Source: Paraglomus brasilianum (Eukaryota). From it: DNA of 45,369 nt. The DNA lies in the NCBI GenBank assembly GCA_910592345.1, contig CAJVPI010000178.1, positions 1 to 45,369 of the forward strand. The letters are read 5' to 3'. Both the position numbers and the translations under genes were made by a program. The notes under the pieces were generated by a model. That model made no database searches, was not told the origin of the DNA, and saw nothing but the letters and a program-made list of their open reading frames with translations. This document shows positions 2,701-45,369 of the stretch, one piece after another. The number at the start of each line of letters is the position of its first letter. Position 1 is the first letter of the stretch.

Positions 2701-4363
2701 TTATTGACATATTGTAATCAATAAATATATACAAACAATATATATAATTGATAACAAAAGTATAAGTACGTAGGGATGAGTTGATTTGCTTTGTACTTTT
2801 TTTCTTCTGTTGTTACATACATTTAATCCCTTTCCTTAGTTGAATAATCGGATACAGTAATAAGTAATAGTTGGCCTTGTTGAATGCAACATGGGTACAG
2901 AACATCGTCGCTACACATTGTATGAAATCTAAAAAGGAATTATTTATAAAAATATAGTAAATATCGACCAAGAGTTAGCTGTCTACACTCAAATTCTTAC
3001 TCTCGATTGTCATCAATCCTTCACCGTATGCATCAAACCGTATCTTCTTTGCCGATGCGTTTGCTGATGTGCGTGTTGATCCTGACATTTTAAGTCGGTG
3101 AATGCAAGGCGTGCTGATATTCAGCGTCTTGTTGTTTCGCAGATTGTTGTATCAATATTATTGTATGAAATCACACCATTGGGTCAACGTTCTGTCAGTG
3201 CGTTTATCTTATGCATTGTGGCAGTCAGCTCATGCACAATCAGCTGGGTATTAGGCTATCTTACGAATCATGAGTTGGATCCTCCCCCACGACAAACGTG
3301 AAAAAAAAAATTTTTTTTTCGTACAGCCACGGGTATGACAATCTTAATTGTCATGAGCTTTACGCCGTTCGAAAGGAATTTGGAAAACAAGCGATAACAT
3401 GCTGACGACAATCTTACTCAAAAGAAACGTGTTACCCCGGAGTCTGTCCAAGGAGAACCCTTTATCAAATATTGCACAGGGTAGAAATTTGGTTAGCTCA
3501 ATAATCGTTGGCGCAACTTATTTATACTAATATATCATTGTAACTCGTTGTGCATAAATCGCAGTTCGGAATCGGTCGGCCATTCATAACACGTGGTTGG
3601 ACAGAGTGCAAGTAGTCAACTTCGTAACTACATTATTACAGAAGAGAAAGCCCCAGAGTAATTGCATGGAAGGAATACTCGAATCTAAAGCCATTAATGA
3701 ATATACCCGTTTTTTGTCACTGTACAATCTAAGATTACTATCTTAATTATCACAATAATAATAATATTATTATTATCGTTGTTATTAAATATTTTACCTA
3801 CATTTTTATTATCTTCCCTGTCTGTTGCGTGATGCGGGTATACAGTCAGCCTCTCTCTATATTCACACTATTGTTTGTGGGATTATAGATACAGACATTG
3901 GTCATGTGATTAAATTTGTCATTAATTTTTATCGATTCCTTTTATTGCAATTGACCGCAATGGCATATTATTGAAGTTAAGTAGAATGGATTGGATCAAT
4001 ATTGTTTGAAAAAGTTGGTTGCTTTTCCTCCTCAACTTTTAAAGCAGCATGTCTGATTGCACCTGTTATACCAATTTAAACGGTCGACATCTAGGTCAGA
4101 CGTTTCCATCAACCTCTGGCAGAACAGCCAGTTGATCACGTTTGTATAAACATCCTGCCTTTTAGTTTCTAACGAAAAGTCACCTTTCGCTTACCAATAT
4201 TAGTTTTTTGGTAGGAATACTTACAACTTAATTGTCGTGTTTCACGTTTATTTAATCTTTAGAAACGAAAACTAAATAAAGACATGTGATTATACGTGAC
4301 TATAGACAGCGGTCAATACTTGTATCTGTTCAGAGTTTTTGTAATAGGGACTATATTGTCACG

Positions 4364-4464: not shown

Positions 4465-5070
4465 TCCCACATTTATTAATAAATGTGACTATATAAACAA
4501 GGGTCGATTGTATATTAAACAATTTACTTTGGGAGATCCATCGATTAACAATAACCGGACAAAGATAGTTATAAAAAAAGACCAGGACTAGCTTGTTCTC
4601 TCTATTCAATGTTCACTGGACATTCCCCGGACATGTTTTCTAGGATTCAACTGATGTCTATATACGTGTTGGGATAATATAAATAACCAACTAATAATCT
4701 TAATTTGTAACTTGGAAATTACTATGTCGATGACTGTTATGCTATCGCAGGCAATGAAAAATCAACGGTATAATATTCCCGTTTACAATATCAGCTCTTC
4801 ATCATTCAGTAAGCGATTGCCAGCCATAAACTTATGTCTTGCCCGTTATGAAACCAATAATTTCTATTATAACACTACTGATTATGATCGATATTTACCA
4901 TTCCATTTAAAGACAAGTATTTAAAAGACGAGTCTGTCAGAACATCTAAAAAGGAAATTGTTATGATAATCAACTCAAATAAATTAATACCAAGTCTATT
5001 CTATTATTATTATGGTCTGGGCATATTAATCTCCATACCATTGTTGTTGTTATTATTAGTATTATTATTA

Positions 5071-5436
5071 CATGTGGGGTGATCGAAAAGTTTTGATCGT
5101 GTGACTTTATTATAATTCACAAACGTACATAATAATTTACAAATATAATTTTCTTGAATCTCTCTCTATCAGCCGTCTCTTCCAATCCTCGAAGAATTTG
5201 TAATAATTCTCTTTTGGATTGCTCTCAACAACTGATCATCTAGACAGCCAACATCATTATAACTCTTTCTAAAAAGTTACCGGGGGGACACTTAATATTA
5301 ACAATTTCATAATCGAGTGCATCATGTGGCAGCACATTATTAATTATCACAACAAAGCATAACATTTGCGCCTTTTTCTGCCATTGATTTTTGAAGACAT
5401 TGGATAATATTTATTACTCTATCGTAACTAACTCCT
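5071..5436 (-). pseudogene. Decayed tandem duplicate of the mariner 3' end
   Basis: Colinear with 5470-5890, with the same TIR and flanking (TAT)n. The minus strand retains FFEDWKRRL. Confidence 0.6.
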
Positions 5437-5469
5437 ACACTGTTCTCTTGATTAGTATTATTATTATTA

Positions 5470-6070
5470 CGTGGGGTGATCGAAAATTTTTGATCGTGGG
5501 ACTTTTATTATAATTAACAGACGTACATAATAATTTACAAACAATTATGCAAGTCCTTCAAAATAGTTTGAATCCTATACAAAGTTTCAGCCGTCTCGAG
5601 GAATTTGTTATAATTCTCTTTTGCATTGCTCTCAACAACTGCTTGAACACCAAGATCTAGACAACTAACATCGTTATAGCTCTTTCTGCCTGCTCTTGGA
5701 AATAAGAAAAAAGTTACGGTGGGGGGGGGAGGACAAATATGATAGGAAGGGTGATACACGTGCTCTGATGTAAACTGAGTGCACTCATGTGGCAGCACAT
5801 TCACAACAAAGCATAACATTTACACCGTTTTTCTCCCTTGATTTTGGAGAAATTTGGATAATGTTTATTACTCTATTGTGACTAATTCCTGTTATATGAG
5901 GGGCTTTGTTGACTACTTCTTCATTTGTATCAATATTTTTCTGATTACAGGCAGCCTCATTGGGTTTTCTGAGCAATGTCTTTTCCTCCACTATCAAATC
6001 TATTAATTCACCATCTAACTGGGCTTTGAAAATCAATGTTTTGTTGCAAAAATGTCTATTACTGTGTGGA
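5470..6070 (-). mobile_element. Mariner-family transposase relic with terminal TIR
   Basis: TA followed by the TIR CGTGGGGTGATCGAAAA at 5470. Minus-strand fragments VML..NVLPH, FFLFPR, VQAVVES..KENY and YFEGL match the mariner C-terminus (LHHDNA.PH, SPCDFFLFP, GDYFE) and the copy at 9741-10700. Frameshifted. Confidence 0.6.
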
Positions 6071-7340: not shown

Positions 7341-8435
7341 CAGTGTATCAAAAAAACCCCCCGGAAAATTGTATACGTCACTAAAACGCGTCTAGCATGC
7401 CCAATTTGGAATCAATTTGCGATGCGTTTAATTCAAAATAAACACAAAGATATCTAGGGATCAATTTAACTCTCTTTTTTCATTGCATCTATACATAAAT
7501 TTTTGATACATTATTACACAATGTCTGCTACCAAGAAAGAATTACACGTAAAACTTTATTATATTTGTGGAACGAGGAAGTGTGTGATGCTTGCGAGCTA
7601 CATGCACGTACAAGCATACCACTCTCAACAATATATGACAATGTAAATAAACAGTAACTACTAAGCATGCTGGTGCCCGAAAAAAATCTTTCGAAAGCAC
7701 TCGGGCAATACATTCGGTGAGACACTTCCTTGTCAACACGAACTCTGGCAAAAAAGTAGGCGTAAGTGTGACGCAATGCAACAATTGCCGACTTTGAATA
7801 TAAAAAACCCTCCAAGAGCCACATCTATGCTTACTAACGCCCACAAGCAAAAACGTGTAGAATGGGCTCAAAAGCATCTTAACGACGATTGGAGTCGGAC
7901 TGTATTCTCAGATGAGACAGCATTCCAACTCTTTCGGAACACTGTAGAACGTTGGCATAAGGGTGTACGGCCAGTTCGTTGTGTGCCGAAAGATCGAACA
8001 AAAATTATGGCATGGGACGGATTTTGCATAAATGGAAAACGAATTTGTTTTGCTTTCGACAAATTATGGATGCCAGATTTCATGTCGAAATTTTACAGCA
8101 ACATTCCCCAAATGCTCGGGGTGGATAGATGGAAGTTTCAGCAAGACAATGACCCCAAGCATAATAGTCGTCTTACTAAAGCCTTTCTTGATGAGAATGC
8201 TCCAGAAGTCATGGACTGACCATCCAATAGTCTTGATTAAACCCTATTGAAAACTTATGGGCCATTGTGAAAGGTAATGTAGAGAAACGAATGCCTCAAA
8301 ATATCAATGAACTGGAGCAATTTATGATGAAGGAGTGGAGGATGTTCCAGATACTGTTGTAATAATCTCGTGGGCTCAATGAGACGCCGTTGTGAACTTG
8401 TTATAGAAAATGATGGAGAGAGAATCTCTTATTAA
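7341..8435 (+). mobile_element. Tc1-family (DD34E) DNA transposon; transposase pseudogene 7521-8435
   Basis: TA|CAGTGTATCAAAAAA left end. ATG at 7521 with an HTH-like region (SIPLSTIYDN), then WSRTVFSDET, QQDNDPKH, D*PSNS.D.NPIENLW (34 residues from D to E after correcting a 1-nt deletion) and RRCELVIENDGERISY*. Several frameshifts and stops. Right TIR not found. Confidence 0.9.
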
Positions 8436-20268: not shown

Positions 20269-20606
20269 GGGTCCGGTTCATTTCATCGACAATCATTTCG
20301 CCGACAGTACGTTTCACCGACATAAATTTCATCGAAAACCAATGATAAGTGCGATAAACAATGTGTCACGTGAAATGACTGTCGGTGAAGTGTACTGTCG
20401 ATGAAATGATTGTCGATGAAATAAATGCCTCCCGATACATTATGGTTAACGTATATGCATGCATTATTATAGTCTTGATAATAAATAATAAAATACGTTG
20501 CCTTCATTAATTATTCAATTCCAATTTGACATATGTCAATTCTAGATTGACATAAATTCCAAATTGACATACAATAAAGTGATTGTCAGGGAAATGAACG
20601 GATCCC
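20269..20606. mobile_element. GGG-ended Mutator/hAT-like MITE (family B) with subterminal CATTTC..CGAC repeats
   Basis: GGGTCCGGTTCATTTC left end and GAAATGAACGGATCCC right end, with inverted subterminal arrays. Contains a (TTGACATA)n segment shared with 35947-36045. Confidence 0.75.
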
Positions 20607-30107: not shown

Positions 30108-30618
30108 TGTAAACGCGTCATTTTTTTTTATTACTAATACGTCAGAGCGGATTAATAACATCCTTACATTTTATTCTCAGTTTAATTTGGATACATTATA
30201 AGCTTATGATAACTGTCTCGAAATCTGCTATAAAATGTTCGTGTTTTCAGTTCCTCCTCAGATCAATCTCTCAATTCTTTATTATTATTCCTTATAACAT
30301 ATAGACACTTACATCCTCTTATTCCACATTGACCTGCTCCCTCTCAAATAACTACCATTATCTTATATCTCATTAGAATTCTTTCATGTATGGCCTTCCT
30401 GCTGGCCACTTCTTTGTTTCACCTCTGACTCTGTCATGTGGGGCAGACTGCAACAAACCCAGACAAAGTGAACATGACATAAATAAGAGGCTGGTGAGGC
30501 TAAAAGTTAACTAATTTGACTAATAAATTTTGATCATTCACAACATAAATTACAGTTTTAAATTATATTATTATTATGCCAAAATGTAACTTTATTAAGT
30601 AATCTTCTATATAAAATT

Positions 30619-30719
30619 GATATAGGGTTATCTCTACATAAAAATATAAATATGAAACTAATTTTACCATAAACCCTAAAAATTACAGCTCAATTAGAAG
30701 TATTCTAAAGAAAAAACAA
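30619..30719 (+). repeat. Dispersed repeat, second copy at ~39692-39802
   Basis: ATATAGGGTTATCTCTA..AAAATAT.AATATGAAACTAATTT...AATTACAGC...AGAAG.ATTCTAAAGAAA.AACAA is shared by both loci. Confidence 0.8.
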
Positions 30720-31058
30720 GGAGAAAAAATTGCGCCTTATGTTTTTAAAATCAATGACATCCAAACTCTCCAGGAATATCTGGATAAAGAAAAAATTACT
30801 TATGAAATTTACCAAGAACGAAAAATCAAACAAAAAAACGAACATTTTAAATTTTCTGCAAGACTTCTTCAATCTGCTGCCATATGGACCATATGGACAG
30901 ATTATACCTCCTTTGCTTTTGGCTATTCTCCTCCTTTTCCCAATAATTCACTAAACTCTCTCCTTGCCACCCTTACAAATTATAGACACCTAATCTCCTC
31001 ATCCCCAACGTGGCCTTCTCACTCTAGACTAAATTACACTCCACATATATAATTGATC

Positions 31059-31272
31059 TTCCCATTTGACCACTTCTTTATTACATATCTGTACAACATG
31101 TTAAAACCAGATTTAGCGGGTATCCGTAGCTTTGGTAATAAAGTAAATTTAGCTTATCTCATTTTTCACTAATAATATTACATATACAATTGGTTTTCCC
31201 ATTTGACCACTTCTACACCTCTGTACATGTTAAAACTAGCTTCAGCTAGTATCCGTAGCTTGGTAATAAAGT
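31059..31272. repeat. Local direct duplication (~80 bp; 31059-31144 and 31196-31272)
   Basis: TTCCCATTTGACCACTTCT...CATGTTAAAAC...GTATCCGTAGCTT(T)GGTAATAAAGT occurs twice. Confidence 0.8.
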
Positions 31273-38718: not shown

Positions 38719-39802
38719 TGAGAGAAGAGGCAAGTATAAAGAGAATTCTTCAATAGTTAAGCTTGTCAGGACGAGTATATAGGAATCTGTACTGTTATTT
38801 TGAAATGAAGCCTGATATTTATAGTTAATACTCATCGGTGTCGATAGTCATTTCACGTGACGTGACACATTGTTTATCGCACGAATATCTATATGGTAGG
38901 ACACGTGTCACGGTTAGTGGCATATATTATAGTATGTTATGAAGTAACGTACTAAGTTATAGAATACGTATTACAGGGAGTAAGCTTGCTCCAACTCTTA
39001 GACCAAGATTTTTCTGAACGAGAGAGAAAAAAACTCATGTGAAAGTTGGGGTTGCCATAAGCGCGATCGCACAAAATGTGACATGTCTACAACAGTTCAA
39101 CATAAGAAATACGAACACTTCCGTTATTCTTGTGCAAGTCTATAGTTTGTGCACATACATAGGAGGAATTTCTCATATTGTTGTGATTATTACTACGAAA
39201 ATTATCGTGAGCCTCAGGGGTACATTATGAGCCGTTGGTTATTGGTTAGTTACACGTGGCAATGTATTTGTTTGTTATTATGGCGGGCAAAAACTCTCGC
39301 ACACCAACTACTAAAAATGGCCGATTGATAATCAGCAAGAGACACATAGGGAAAACGAGTGAGATCTGGTTGCTTAGGTCAGTGTTTTTATTGTATTGTC
39401 CGATTCAACCCATTTCTCTTGCCTTTTACATTCAAACTGTAAAAAACCTGTTATCTAAATTTGATCGATTGGCTCAGCGACTGCCGTTCACTACTATTAA
39501 GATTATATATGGGGCATGCTGCAACAAAACCAGACAAAGTGAACATTTTATTATGTGAGGCTAATTATGATGTGGCTGTAAAATTGACCAGGGTGAATGA
39601 TGACGTTTTGAAAAGTAATAATGGTGCTTATGGACTTGTTAATGTTCACTTTATCATACCAGAATGTGATGAATAAACCATAACAAGATTAATATAGGGT
39701 TATCTCTATATAAAAAATATTAATATGAAACTAATTTACATTAAATCCACTATGGAACCAAAGAATTACAGCACTATCAGAAGCATTCTAAAGAAAGAAC
39801 AA

Positions 39803-40399
39803 TTACTTCCTTAATTTCAATCAGGGTCATTTCTTAGGCTCTTTAACCTCAATTTGAGCAACTTGACCATTTTGTTGCTCTTTTAGTAGTTTAATTTCTT
39901 GGGTTAATTTAATAATTTGTGCCTCTTGTTCTTTAATCTTATCCAATAATTCCTGTTTCTGCTTTTTGCTCCATTCTTCAGATTTCTCTTGAAATTTGAC
40001 TACTTCTTCCCTTTCAATGTTCAGCTCCTCCTTGGCAGCTTTCAATTCATTTTCAAGTTTCTTAGTTTTATTTGCTAAATGAGATTCAATAGTTTGGGAC
40101 ATCCCATCTTCTGTGGAGGACGTTCTGAATTTCCCATCTTTCAATAGATTGCAATAACAACCCATCCTATTTCTCTGTAGTCTACCACAAAGCTCACAAT
40201 AAGAGAGGTTATTGTTTTCAAAATCTTTTTTACAATCAGCACAAATAGAGCCAATATCTGCAGTAGAACCATCTTCATGATATGCCACTAATTCATGAGT
40301 AGCATTATCAAAAACTGGTTCATCACTAATCACACAGTAATTACAATATGGGACAGATAATTTGGTTCTTTCAAAAATTCTATATTCTAATTTCTTCAT
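39803..40399 (-). CDS. Endobacterial-type (Mollicutes-related) hypothetical protein: CxxC zinc-finger-like N-terminus plus coiled coil; 198 aa in code 4 (190 aa in standard code, stop at 39827)
   Basis: Intronless. Motifs CNYC, CADC, CELC and CYC. Ends QVAQIEVKEPKK-TGA-P-TGA-LKLRK-TAA. Starts 2 nt after the stop of the upstream gene. Confidence 0.75.
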
Positions 40400-40401
40400 A
40401 A

Positions 40402-41397
40402 CTAATTACTGTGTAAGATATAAGTATCAAACTTTTGCTTGACATCTCCTTTAATCAAATTAACTTTCTCTTTGAGCTTTTGAATTCTTTCACTAACTTT
40501 TGTTTTTGCTTTCTTTGTCAATCTCTCAATTTGCTTTATTTTATCTTTTTTCTCATAAGCATCTAGTTTCTTTTTCAATTGGTCATTCTCTATTCTTTGT
40601 TCAATAATAGTACAATCTCTTTTCATGTTCTCTACAAAAACTCTTCTATCATGTCATTCTTTGGACTTGTCTAGTGCTTTTAAGTTCATTTCAACTTCAA
40701 TTTCTACTCTTTCTTCCAACTCTTCTACTCTTATTTCCAATTCTTCTTGTTTGACTTCTAACTGTTGAATTTTTTCTTCATTTTCTCGATTTTGTTTAAC
40801 CACTTTATCAAAAATTCCCTTAACTTTAAAAGTTAACTCATTCCAACTACTAATTAACTCATCTAAAGAAAGATGTCTAAGGTCTAAATAAGAATAACAA
40901 CTTTTTCAATCCTCTTCATACCCATTTTCTAATATTCTTTGAGTTGTGATTGTGTCTTCTAATTTGCTTTCACTTATTCACTTTCTAAATAACCCCTTGC
41001 TTTCTTCAGAATTTAGTTTGATAAGGTTGATAAGGATGTGATATCTAGCATCATTCCTTTCACTGTAAAGTTTTCCTGTGAGATTTCAGTAATGATTAAA
41101 CTTGTAAGTATAGAAAATCATATTTCTACGAATTGCTTCAGTAGGATTCCACTCACAAAACTTAGATCAACATTCTTGGTTGCAATGATACATTACTGCA
41201 TCAATTGCCTTTGCATCCATATCAGAAGCACTGTAATCATTAATTAGAATACTAATTATTCATTGTCTAATTTCTTCATTATTCAACTGTTTAAATTCTT
41301 GGTCTTTTTCTTTATCAGCCAATTTCTTTTCTAGGTCAGCAATCTTGTTTAGCAACTCTTGGTTTTGTTGCTGTTGTATTTTTAAAATATTTACCAT
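40402..41397 (-). CDS. Endobacterial-type coiled-coil hypothetical protein, 331 aa, open only with TGA=Trp (code 4); a pseudogene under the fungal nuclear code
   Basis: One frame from ATG 41397 to TAG 40404-40402 with no internal TAA/TAG, frameshift or intron, but six in-frame TGA (41262, 41169, 41088, 40980, 40908, 40656). The ORF track shows only its last 74 aa. Confidence 0.8.
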
Positions 41398-41546
41398 TTT
41401 TATTTTTTTAATATACTTATAGGGCTATATTAAGTATATAATTATTTTACTATTCTTTTTATTTAAACTTTAAAAATTGTAAAGTGGGAATATTAGATAG
41501 AGAATTTAACGTGGTGAGGAAATTAATGAATTTTAGTCTAAATATT

Positions 41547-43259
41547 TTATTCATTTCTGGTATAGGTTGGGCTTGGGCAAGTAATGTCTTTGAATTCATC
41601 TCTAACAAATGGGCGAATATTATGGTGAAGATATTCCTGTCTTTTATAATCCAAAGAAGGAGGAGTCAGTACCAGTATAGAAAAGGATTTAATTTCTCCA
41701 GTAATTTCGGAAACACTTGCTTTTCTAGTTTTCAATAAATTAAGTTCAGTAAACACACCATTAGCAACCAGCTGAGCTTTGACAATTCCAGGATTAGTTG
41801 CTTCAAAAACAAAATGCTGATACTTTTGTAAACCATTCAATTTCTTAAAGAAAATTCCCAACACGGAATTAAGATCCAAATATTGAAAGCCTTTCCCATT
41901 GTCATAATGTTGAGCCTTGTTTAATCCAGCTGTACTTGATTTTTTCACAACCTCAACAATATGATCTACGCAATCTACAGTCGTTTTGCGATATAATTTC
42001 TTAATCAGTCCAAAACTACCATCACACTTGAATTTAGTATGTCCAGGTATCATGAAATTTAATTCGATACTTTCATAATAACCGCAAATTACTAAATAGA
42101 GGTAAAATCAAATAGTGGCATTATTTTTATTCTGACCACCAGCATTATCACAAGTAATCTTTAAACGCTTTTCGCTTTTATTCAATTTCTTAATCCCATC
42201 GAATACCAGGCTTAGTGTGCCATTAGGGCCTTTGCCGATAATTTCGCCTTCGTCGAGAACATAATTAATTTGTTCGCGTACTGCTTCATCTTGAATACCA
42301 AATAAATGTACTTTACGTGGACTGAGATAATAAATTTTACTTACTTGTTGGTCGGAATGGGGAACGTGAACATTTTGTGCTCAATCATAACTGTAATGAG
42401 CAGTCGCGTCTACACTACAATAATTAGCTTTACGACTTGTTATAAAATGCTCGTCTACTAATTTTCTCGGTTTTAGCTTTAACTAGATGTTCTTTGAATT
42501 TTTTCAATAAATCTTTCGCTTCTTCTTCCTTGCGAGCATTATACTGCAAGCCATTCCGAAAATGTTGGCACGTGTCACATAAATCCGTTCTTGGACTCAT
42601 AATTTGAATATAAGGTGTCATAACTTGCGGAATGCGTCATATTTTAACAATTTCAACGGGCTATCATTTTCGAGACCTGCAATAAAATCACGATAGACCG
42701 ATTTATAACTCGTTTCAGCTGGCAATAGTGTAAGCGATTGAGTAATGCGACTGACATTTCTACCAGGACTTGGTAGTCCGTGAATTTCAGCATAATTTTC
42801 GAGAAAATTCTTCACGATGGTAGCAACGGTTATATCGATGGTTTTTTTGGTTTTTTATCGCGGCATTCGTTTAATGTTACCGTGAATGCGCGGTATTATA
42901 CCATTCGTTGCCGGATGATTTCGGACGTTCTCGAAGTGAGTGCGGCCAATTCCTAACATATTGAGATACGTTTTCTGACAAAGTGGCGTATTGCGATCTC
43001 AATAATAAAATGTTCGCTTATTAGTACGCGTTTTCTTTCTGAGACGTCAGCTGGTGGTTATTTCTCCACCATTCATTGCTTTCAACTGGGCCATTAAAAA
43101 TATATCTTGCTCAGATCTAGAGAGAGCTTGAAACGCCTCACGTAAGTCGGCAAACCTCTCTCTCGGAATCATTTTCGAGCAACCACATTTGCAACCTATC
43201 TCTAAGAAACGGATTGCTTTTTCGTATTCGGCGGAGCCATTATAATTAGAATTTCTCAT
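41547..43259 (-). pseudogene. Sola1-like DDD DNA transposase pseudogene
   Basis: Motifs CKCGC, PLCQKTYL, PRIHGN, HGLPSPGR, PRTDLCDTC, HYSYD*AQNVHVP, CDNAGGQNKNN and MIPGHTKFKCDGSFG. At least 5 premature stops and 2 deletion frameshifts. TIR pair not found; the superfamily call rests on remembered motifs. Confidence 0.75.
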
Positions 43260-43634
43260 ATATGGGTAATCCTATATATTAATTTTTATTGCTTTGTCAT
43301 TTTTATGATTGTCTCAACAATGTACTTTTGAATATAGAAATCATGCGTGATGCTGAGTGACCTGCATTTTAATCGAATTCAAGCACATTCTATAATTGTC
43401 TGCTTCGAAAAATTTAACCTCCAGCATATCCTTCTGCGGTAATAGTAAAAGTAAAAGAGATAAGCACGTGTTATTATTATTCCCAAAACGTATGAATATG
43501 ATAGGAGGGCTTTCAGTTTTAAGTTTTGTTCGTATAACCTGAGGATTCATTTATTAATATGAAGCAAATTATATTCAATATGCACAGCTTATTTTCACTA
43601 TTGATTTTTCATGACTTCGTCTCTGACTAATATA

Positions 43635-45105
43635 CTAACTTATCATTTGACCCAAGTATCTAGATTTCAATGACTCTAACCAATAAATATCATGTTCACG
43701 ACTCAGTTTCTTCTGATCTTCAGCCCCTGGTGGCCAATTAATATGTCGATGGTTCATGAAAGATGGATAGCAATCAATTTCTTCTTTACCCGCCCAATCG
43801 AAATCTATTAACATTCCTTGATACTGACCTTGAGATTTGCTAACTAAAATGTTGGAATCATGGAGATCAGCAAAAACAATATTTTCTGTATGCAATTTGT
43901 CAATAGCTTCTTCAATGTCCATTAAAATCGCCTTGTATTCATCATGACTAAGTGAGCTGCAGTTATAAAGTGGCTCAGCCTCAACAAAATCCATCACAAC
44001 CATGTAAAAACCATCCACTATCTCTTTGTTAACATAGAGCAATTTTGGTGCTTTGCCAATTTCACTACACAGTTCATGTGCCTTCTGATTATACTGTGAT
44101 GCAAATTTAACAATGATTTTCCACCCATCTCTTGTTATGGCTTTCCAAAGAAGCTTGTCATCAACAAGTTTTCCTTCATATGTAAACTCTATGATTGTAT
44201 CTTGATGTCTGTATTGATTTGGATAGGGAAAAAATCGTTGTGAATTTTGTTGGTATATCTAGAGATCCATAATACTCCTTTAACCTATTGACTCCCAAGT
44301 GGAAGGCTTTGAATAATCGTGCCACTCACTCTGCATGGGCTTGATTGTTTGTAGGTATGAGAGGTATGAAGTCGGTCAAGGGATCTATAATGGGTTTCTC
44401 AATGTATACTGCCCCTAAAATGCACACCCATGGTCCAGCTAAGCATAAGATAAAAGACGGCCAGTTGCACTATTTGAGTATTTCACTATTTGTCTGTTGG
44501 GTATAATATTTTGCAAAAGAAGCTCCAGCCTGGACAGTCAGATCACAGCTACCAGTGCCAATTTCATTTTTAATCTCAACAAAGCAGTGTAAAACACTTC
44601 TTGAAAAGACATTAGATTCCAGTACTCCATCATTTGAAGAATTGTCTTCTAGATGAATTATCCTTAACTCTTCACCAAATAATTCACGAATTTTTTCTCT
44701 AAACACTTTGGAACGATCACTTTCACTGTGGTATAATTCTGCCATACCATGAATAATATCAAGGGTCCATTGATAATGTTCTCTCCTCATCTTTAGATCT
44801 TCATTATGGTAATCATGCAGGAACTGACTGAAAACATTGTGATAAACTTGTACTGGTGGACCAACACATTCTGGAGGGCGGTGAATAAGTAACTGCTTGT
44901 CCTTAATCTGGTAACCAATAAGATTACTGAGAAGTGCAAAAGATGATGGTGAAGGATAACTCCGAATCTTCTTTACATTTCTTTGCTGTTCTGTAAAGTG
45001 GAGAAATTGGTTATGACAAAAATTCTACCAATGCACAATATATACAACTAACCTTCTTCATAATTATCCAAGTTGGAAGAATGTTGCTTACTAGCTGACA
45101 AAGAT
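43635..45105 (-). pseudogene. Crinkler-like restriction-endonuclease-fold + protein-kinase-like gene, decayed, 5' part beyond the LTR insertion
   Basis: SNDG...FVEIKNEIG (PD-(D/E)xK-like), IIVKF, KAPKL, VVMDF, IVFADLHDSNIL and LIDFDWAG. GT-AG intron ~45052-44991. Stops at 44472 and 44328 and a frameshift at ~44255. Confidence 0.8.
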
Positions 45106-45137: not shown

Positions 45138-45369
45138 TGTTACGGTCGGGAATTTAAATTGGGATTTTTGGGAGAGCGATTTATCTTTTGTGTAGGTGTG
45201 TTCGCCGACCGGGGGATGTTACCAGGCTTAGCTTGTACTATCGCCCTTACTACGATAGTCGTGCAATTAAGACTGAATTAAGCCTCAAGTGACTATTTTA
45301 ATTATGCGCGCTTTTTCACTCCCTATCCGAGTTTCAAACACTCGTGAATACAAATAAGGGTACCTCTAA
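45138..45369. mobile_element. Probable LTR end (TGTTACG...) inserted in an intron of the kinase gene, truncated by the window edge
   Basis: Abrupt switch at TGTTACGG from CpG-poor gene sequence to CpG-rich non-coding sequence resembling the solo LTR at 19391. The other end is not visible. Confidence 0.5.

Follow-up and report, generated by a model that had tools for sequence, protein, structure and literature searches.

Symbiont-coded DNA occurs in host chromosomes as Wolbachia-type, NUMT-like insertions. According to the literature on the closest described systems, AWWT is a hallmark of Sola1 transposons (PMC3845634), and Sola1 has been reported in Rhizophagus (PMC5751038). Mollicutes-related endobacteria carry fungal-type genes (kinases, LRR, MGMT) that are annotated under table 4 (PMC10507103), and 1-8% of their non-orphan genes are transposases (PMC4916391). 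The same literature reports that mycorrhizal assemblies contain endobacterial contigs (PMC10507103), that the Crinklers (CRNs) of R. irregularis have kinase, NTPase, and REase C-terminal domains (PMC6131194), and that repeats are CpG-methylated (PMC13443276). In PMC5982333, the bacterial donors to R. irregularis are not known endobacteria.

Here, we find that two small genes written in genetic code 4 (TGA = Trp) are carried by the right arm of a transposon-like element, and that the transposase of this element is in code 4 as well. Since the transposase shares the code of its cargo, a fungal-type transposon is likely to have moved into an endobacterium and likely keeps returning copies to fungal chromosomes. 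The features of the window (the whole stretch of 45,369 nucleotides analyzed) are as follows:

30436..30846, plus strand: second arm, older, of the same family, with a GGGGC end, ACAT outside it, and a decayed gene 3
39507..39510, no strand: ATAT just beyond the terminus; could be one half of a 4-bp AWWT target duplication, or else belong to the terminus itself
39511..39546, plus strand: terminal repeat beginning GGGGC (GCCCC read from the arm side), where homology among copies ends abruptly
39547..39802, no strand: rest of the right arm, conserved and non-coding, with a TATATAG..CCCTATA motif near 39698-39716
39725..39802, plus strand: remnant of gene 3, a small arm-encoded gene, about 100 bases of which are lost in the window
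39803..40399, minus strand: gene 2, code 4, 198 aa, with a Cys-pair (likely zinc-binding) N-domain, a long helix at 96-183, and a Trp/Lys-rich tail
40402..41397, minus strand: gene 1, code 4, 331 aa, with an all-helical domain and a long coiled coil
41418..41432, minus strand: putative motif TAATATAGCCCTATA, preceding gene 1 and akin to motifs ahead of the transposase and gene 3
41547..43259, minus strand: DUF7869 (Sola1-like) transposase, decayed, with TGA at Trp 87, 310, and 401
43264..43290, minus strand: motif ATATATAGGATTACCC, the upstream homology limit among five copies, 15 nt before the transposase start
43635..45024, minus strand: protein-kinase gene, standard-code, broken, on the transposase strand; candidate host-derived cargo
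45190..45369, no strand: high-depth repeat at the window end; the unique contig ends at 45189

Elsewhere, the window contains a weak Tc3-type HTH match (7542-8240), a tandem duplication (69%) of some 450 bases (5039-5890), and a 150-base palindrome (20277-20425).

Genes 1 and 2 are genuine, and TGA stands for tryptophan in both. Gene 1 (41397-40402, minus strand) encodes 331 aa followed by TAG, with six TGA codons (W46, W77, W104, W140, W164, and W248), two TGG, and 19 CAA/CAG codons. Gene 2 (40399-39803) starts 2 nt later and encodes 198 aa followed by TAA, with two TGA (W191 and W193). In the standard code, translation ends after 45 aa in gene 1 and yields 190 aa for gene 2. These two open frames had been proposed in an initial annotation made from the letters of the DNA, and translation confirms them: the longest frame without TAA or TAG in the shuffled window spanned 221 codons, and none of 100 base shuffles reached 331. 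The cassette is CpG-poor (CpG o/e 0.08).

Because protein relatives may have been predicted under code 4, we checked tryptophan codons in DNA, counting codons and element parts in the best 80 of 131 confirmed related loci, 71 of which contain gene 1. At the Trp columns of gene 2, we find 191 TGA, 38 TGG, 19 other codons, and no TAA or TAG (248 sites, 80 loci). The corresponding counts for gene 1 are 95 TGA, 63 TGG, one TAG, and 45 others (204 sites, 71 loci). At both gene 2 sites and at two gene 1 sites, the window has TGA where at least one relative has TGG. Decay from CGA or TGG does not produce such alternation. The reading of TGA as tryptophan thus stands in DNA from 80 loci, and the arginine that CGA decay predicts is nearly absent: CGA lies opposite a gene 2 Trp at only 1 of the 248 sites. 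The alignment, noted initially, of a KSKEW segment in gene 1 with KSEEW in gene 2 is weak in pairwise comparison (BLASTP E 0.14) and is retained between the family profiles (E 6e-5, probability 65%).

Gene 1 has no match in Pfam, PHROG, or NCBIfam, and gene 2 has just sub-threshold matches to zinc-finger and coiled-coil families. Structure prediction gives a helical domain and coiled coil for gene 1 (pLDDT 85, pTM 0.40) and a Cys-rich head and coiled coil for gene 2 (pLDDT 80, pTM 0.42). The gene 1 model matches generic coiled coils alone (Z ≤ 8.2), in a comparison that barely covers its N-domain, and the gene 2 model has no Foldseek match at E ≤ 0.001. Judging by these models, the likeliest role of the two genes is that of a coiled-coil protein pair at work in the bacterium, in which gene 2 would have a metal-binding head and a membrane-binding tail. 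Scans for sigma-70 promoters and terminators scored at or below chance. A 39-nt inverted pair flanking genes 1 and 2 was considered as the element ends and rejected, as it is the gene-start motif. In a separate observation, W143 of gene 2 is TGG in the window and in the metagenome contig L001, and TGA in 11 other copies compared. Read in the host code, gene 2 would therefore yield 190 of its 198 residues (39827-40399, minus strand) and lack the Trp-rich tail alone; such a host-readable protein is a possible route to domestication.

The transposase has also evolved in code 4. Its profile matches PF25273 above cut-off and PF07592 weakly; DUF7869 and a DNxxGQNKN motif are what we take to link it to Sola transposases. 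A PDB search with it returned no match. The window copy is 85% identical to an intact code-4 copy in locus L075 and is decayed, with extra stops at codons 71 and 135 (codon 71 through one CGA>TGA change) and two deletions, of 10 and 44 bases, that shift the frame. Intact relatives of 584-587 aa are present in L034, L036, L038, and L075. All eight long transposase frames carry two to four TGA at Trp columns, with TGA at W311 in every one, and distant fungal relatives keep Trp at this position in 12 of 12 cases. Across 23 loci, each of 25 in-frame TGA faces a Trp. In all 21 pairs of seven frames, dN/dS is 0.075-0.134 at dS 0.25-1.7, with TGA/TGG swaps. Thus, the transposase long evolved, under purifying selection, where TGA means tryptophan. 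Its cargo is constrained more weakly (dN/dS 0.29-0.40 for gene 1, and 0.06-0.30 for gene 2 where computable). Three conserved acidic residues, D310 (65/67 alignment rows), D389 (69/69), and D431 (75/75), are probably the catalytic residues of an RNase H-like transposase.

Two further patterns were seen among the transposases. One subclade (L028, L030, L038, and L078) has a CpG o/e of about 0.1 and the other (L034, L036, L075, and the window) of 1.2-1.3; they also differ in arginine codons, AGA versus CGN, and both use TGA for Trp. Additionally, a cluster of 33 proteins (including P0159 and P0160), on contigs of 2-236 kb, reads through the W214, W311, and W402 columns. Many of its members are 454 aa long and start at reference residue 139. 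This cluster is a candidate host-readable sub-lineage.

The initial annotation placed the cassette at 39803..41440, which misses most of the unit. Element homology across loci runs from 39507 to about 43290, and the unit itself from 39511 to at least 43290. In the best 80 of 131 loci, the arm is present in 42, the transposase lies directly upstream in 23, and some element part occurs in 50; an IS630-like gene takes the place of element parts in eight, no locus has both, and 22, mostly short, have neither. Among 25 ends (18 loci and the window), we find 20 distinct flanks; the count uses 18 of 24 end-bearing loci, as the other 6 have variant or cut ends. AWWT lies directly outside the terminus in 19 of these 20 flanks of metagenome relatives (ATAT 17, AAAT 1, ATTT 1; the remaining flank has ACAT). 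None of the loci examined holds a copy with both ends, so the AWWT duplication and the left terminal repeat remain candidates. Two termini face each other back to back, in inverted orientation, in L034-L036 and in L080, and the outer end of L075 interrupts a Tc1-like frame. The L080 termini (1016-1099) are separated by a 16-nt AT-only spacer, and this junction is a candidate for either adjacent insertions or a circle. miRNA matches on L080 were discarded as the terminal palindrome. At the second arm of the window, a contig in run X1 skips 30432-31226, possibly an empty or variant site.

Gene 3 has a Trp-free core and lies on the strand opposite to genes 1 and 2. Sixteen readings, taken from the 13 loci checked, give it 47-88 aa, and the long forms end in a basic tail that resembles an NLS. 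Its relatives (120 representatives at E ≤ 0.001) all have uninformative names, as does its single Atlas match, at 0.79.

Protein relatives of gene 1 (33) and gene 2 (191) are nearly all unnamed and on metagenome contigs of 1-8 kb; those with names are broken models from mycorrhizal fungal assemblies. The protein searches gave no named Moeniiplasma match for either gene. Exact-word scans of GTDB species genomes and viral contigs found neither gene, nor the transposase or terminal motif, and a plasmid scan had no match. Of 83 transposase matches, the close ones are in Ambispora, Geosiphon, Diversispora, Gigaspora, Glomus, and Funneliformis assemblies, on contigs of up to 1.19 Mb in Geosiphon. 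Some of the element-bearing fungal contigs could be bacterial contamination (compare PMC10507103). Among close mycorrhizal-fungus gene models spanning W311, 15 of 17 skip this column, as expected if annotators bridge a TGA with an intron. One match is from a Ca. Moeniiplasma metagenome-assembled genome (MAG) (329 aa, 53% identity), and full-length Rhizophagus relatives are 32-45% identical. In a quick, midpoint-rooted tree of 59 rows (8 loci and 51 proteins, most spliced fragments omitted), the code-4 transposases are sister to a clade containing the Ca. Moeniiplasma protein (SH-aLRT 98), and standard-code Rhizophagus and Gigaspora proteins fall outside both clades.

Genes 1 and 2 also occur in contigs that are themselves in code 4, beside cmk (L019, above the NCBIfam cut-off), an AIG1-LRR gene with nine TGA (L008), and IS630-like genes (L044 and L066). 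These neighborhoods support the bacterial provenance claimed initially, and homologs are not confined to intron-bearing fungal genes. In a FastTree phylogeny, gene 2 from nine bacterial-context loci falls at seven separate places among element-borne copies. Thus, the module of genes 1 and 2 moves between bacterial neighborhoods and the element. The Mollicutes-related donor is named by inference, as it is the sister clade of the transposase alone that has the Moeniiplasma match. No element end lies within clearly bacterial DNA among the loci examined, and the eight IS630 loci lack any element part. Median CpG o/e of gene 2 is 0.16 in element-borne copies (n = 50) versus 0.43 in bacterial contexts (n = 9); a methylating bacterium would explain this difference as well as a long stay in the nucleus would. 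In L044, L050, L051, L064, and L066, two small Cys-rich code-4 genes precede genes 1 and 2, and an IS630-like transposase follows; by its layout, this arrangement appears to be an undescribed endobacterial mobile cassette.

The window itself is eukaryotic nuclear DNA, since its G-alpha and P450 genes carry GT..AG introns. It is described as fungal because the named relatives closest to the element, which are from Glomeromycotina, suggest such a host. The nuclear setting, like code 4 and the bacterial provenance, is supported as initially described; the proposed transfer of a free two-gene piece is not, as the genes are cargo of a transposon whose family is found again in many fungal assemblies.

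We consider it probable that a fungal Sola1-type cut-and-paste transposon was recoded in Mollicutes-related endobacteria and repeatedly re-enters host nuclei, where it decays. A fungal element would have entered the endobacteria and been recoded there, so that its transposase would be made in the bacterium, where TGA is tryptophan. Genes 1 and 2 would be an accessory module, variable and exchanged with bacterial IS630 neighborhoods. Element DNA, or transposase-DNA complexes, freed in the shared cytoplasm might then reach a nucleus and be joined at an AT-rich 4-mer. Once nuclear, code-4 genes could not be read through and would drift. Synonymous-to-replacement ratios of 8:3 among shared variants versus 2:7 among private ones lean toward selection before insertion and drift after, although the difference is not significant (P = 0.07). 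A broader version of this account, which we offer tentatively and with some doubt, is a shuttle across kingdoms with a two-code cycle. In such a cycle, the endobacterium alone could read the transposase and bacterial cargo, the fungus alone would read well the host genes on the left, and DNA would be ferried both ways, with many copies seeded in the nuclei of several mycorrhizal genera.

In five of five copies, a standard-code gene on the transposase strand terminates 130-680 bases upstream of the transposase. This gene encodes a kinase in three of them (the window, L034, and L038) and a related P-loop protein in L036 and L075, where it is intact with nine TGG and no TGA. Such genes are presumably Crinkler-like; a search of them found the kinase domain and no Crinkler Pfam domain. 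Among the close gene models of named fungi, 24 in all, eight carry 265-566 residues of unrelated sequence fused to the front of the transposase, including two kinases and two relatives of the L036/L075 protein. The second end of L034, 1.9 kb on, leads to DNA 93.6% like the start of the L036 upstream gene. This suggests an 8.6-kb layout of end, gene 3, host gene, transposase, gene 1, gene 2, gene 3, and end, which may be an assembly collapse. Beyond this second end, L034 6582-6660 is 80% like window 3647-3721. The repeat at 45190-45369 matches none of the loci examined; it may represent the inner part of the left arm, or else a different element.

These standard-code genes raise the possibility, which we regard as unlikely, that the element multiplies mainly in the fungal nucleus, carries standard-code host genes, and is mobilized in trans by an endobacterial transposase, a TGG-only sibling, or unusual UGA decoding. 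Summed depth (which is not copy number) is compatible with such a life: in X1, it reaches 44,000-91,000 on the transposase and arm against mostly 34-97 on the flanks, and in X3, 900-1,500 against 1-4. It points to a large element family in which the cargo of genes 1 and 2 is a rare variant, as these genes lack the high depth (about 245 in X1 and 11-15 in X3). CpG loss, the Trp-free gene 3 with its NLS-like tail, and the cluster that reads through W214, W311, and W402 also favor nuclear multiplication. However, genes 1 and 2 do not share this depth, selection kept TGA rather than TGG over dS > 1 in every copy with DNA examined, and no tRNA (suppressor) or known RNA was detected in the window or 28 loci; the L034/L036 link, moreover, is possibly a collapsed assembly. 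The lack of ends with bacterial flanks, the blank GTDB scans, the unrecoded upstream genes, and the low CpG keep this mainly nuclear, in-trans reading alive.

Capture of endosymbiont DNA is common, and a piece of endobacterial DNA carrying the element might have been captured once, by DNA repair. The missing left end and the decay of the copy would fit a single capture. Yet the join falls exactly at the family terminus, as it does in the 20 flanks, no bacterial DNA lies beyond it, and a second arm is present 9 kb away. We therefore regard one passive capture as quite unlikely.

Very unlikely is an artifact, in which an assembly chimera or bacterial contamination was joined to the window through a repeat. 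The arm is indeed a high-depth repeat, and endobacterial contigs are known from mycorrhizal assemblies. However, the independent metagenome contig L001 matches 41780-39341 at 98.9% and continues to 39309, so that it crosses the terminus by about 200 bases into the window flank and spans the right junction, one of the two for which the initial annotation had asked for spanning reads. The left junction was not recognized and may lie beyond the window. L001 has this flank, yet also 11 variants in common with another copy seen in X1, which speaks for an artifact. Four X1 contigs match the window flanks with no differences. In X2, the depth of genes 1 and 2 (388-828, with two or three differences) matches that of the flanks (319-782). 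X1 and X2 are one sample, possibly the source of the window, and their contigs reach past the right junction by 23-24 letters, below the 31 required. Furthermore, the transposase copy is pseudogenized, which is what a nuclear location would lead one to expect.

Many fungal mitochondria use table 4, the cassette is CpG-poor, and transposase codon 71 is a CGA>TGA change, but the idea that a fungal gene acquired its TGAs by mutational decay, or that the DNA is mitochondrial, is largely refuted and carries hardly any weight, as TGA swaps with TGG and almost never with CGA or TAG, and relatives adjoin cmk, IS630, and AIG1-LRR genes.

We thus return to a Sola1-type transposon recoded in endobacteria. 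We found no report of a code-4 Sola element in the literature searched, which lies mostly outside subscription journals. If our reading is true, the element would be a concrete vehicle for the long-noted exchange of genes between Mollicutes-related endobacteria and their mycorrhizal hosts, and its use of TGA for Trp a built-in record of where each copy last evolved. It would also represent a class of nuclear repeat that standard annotation mangles through invented introns. Strains that no longer have the bacterium could keep a record of past infections in their nuclear copies, and an active copy might be developed into a means of delivering DNA to two partners for which genetics is lacking.

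The element resembles Sola1 of Rhizophagus and animals in its DUF7869 DDE-type transposase of about 590 aa, 32-45% identical to Rhizophagus proteins, and in a terminus of about 36 nt that starts with GG and has AWWT beside the end (PMC3845634 and PMC5751038). Unlike Sola1, it is coded in table 4 under selection, has bacterial cargo and long arms with a small gene, and has a sister lineage in an endobacterium. As in host-to-endobacterium transfer in Ca. Moeniiplasma, a fungal-type gene is found in table-4 bacteria; here, however, what was transferred is a transposase gene, and the DNA turns up again, many times over, in host nuclear surroundings. The upstream genes recall Crinklers in being kinases or P-loop proteins, but lack a Crinkler Pfam match. 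Finally, the element is like Wolbachia-type insertions in that symbiont-coded DNA decays in a host chromosome, and unlike them in that the join coincides with a defined end of a transposon, not with a random break, and element DNA alone is seen.
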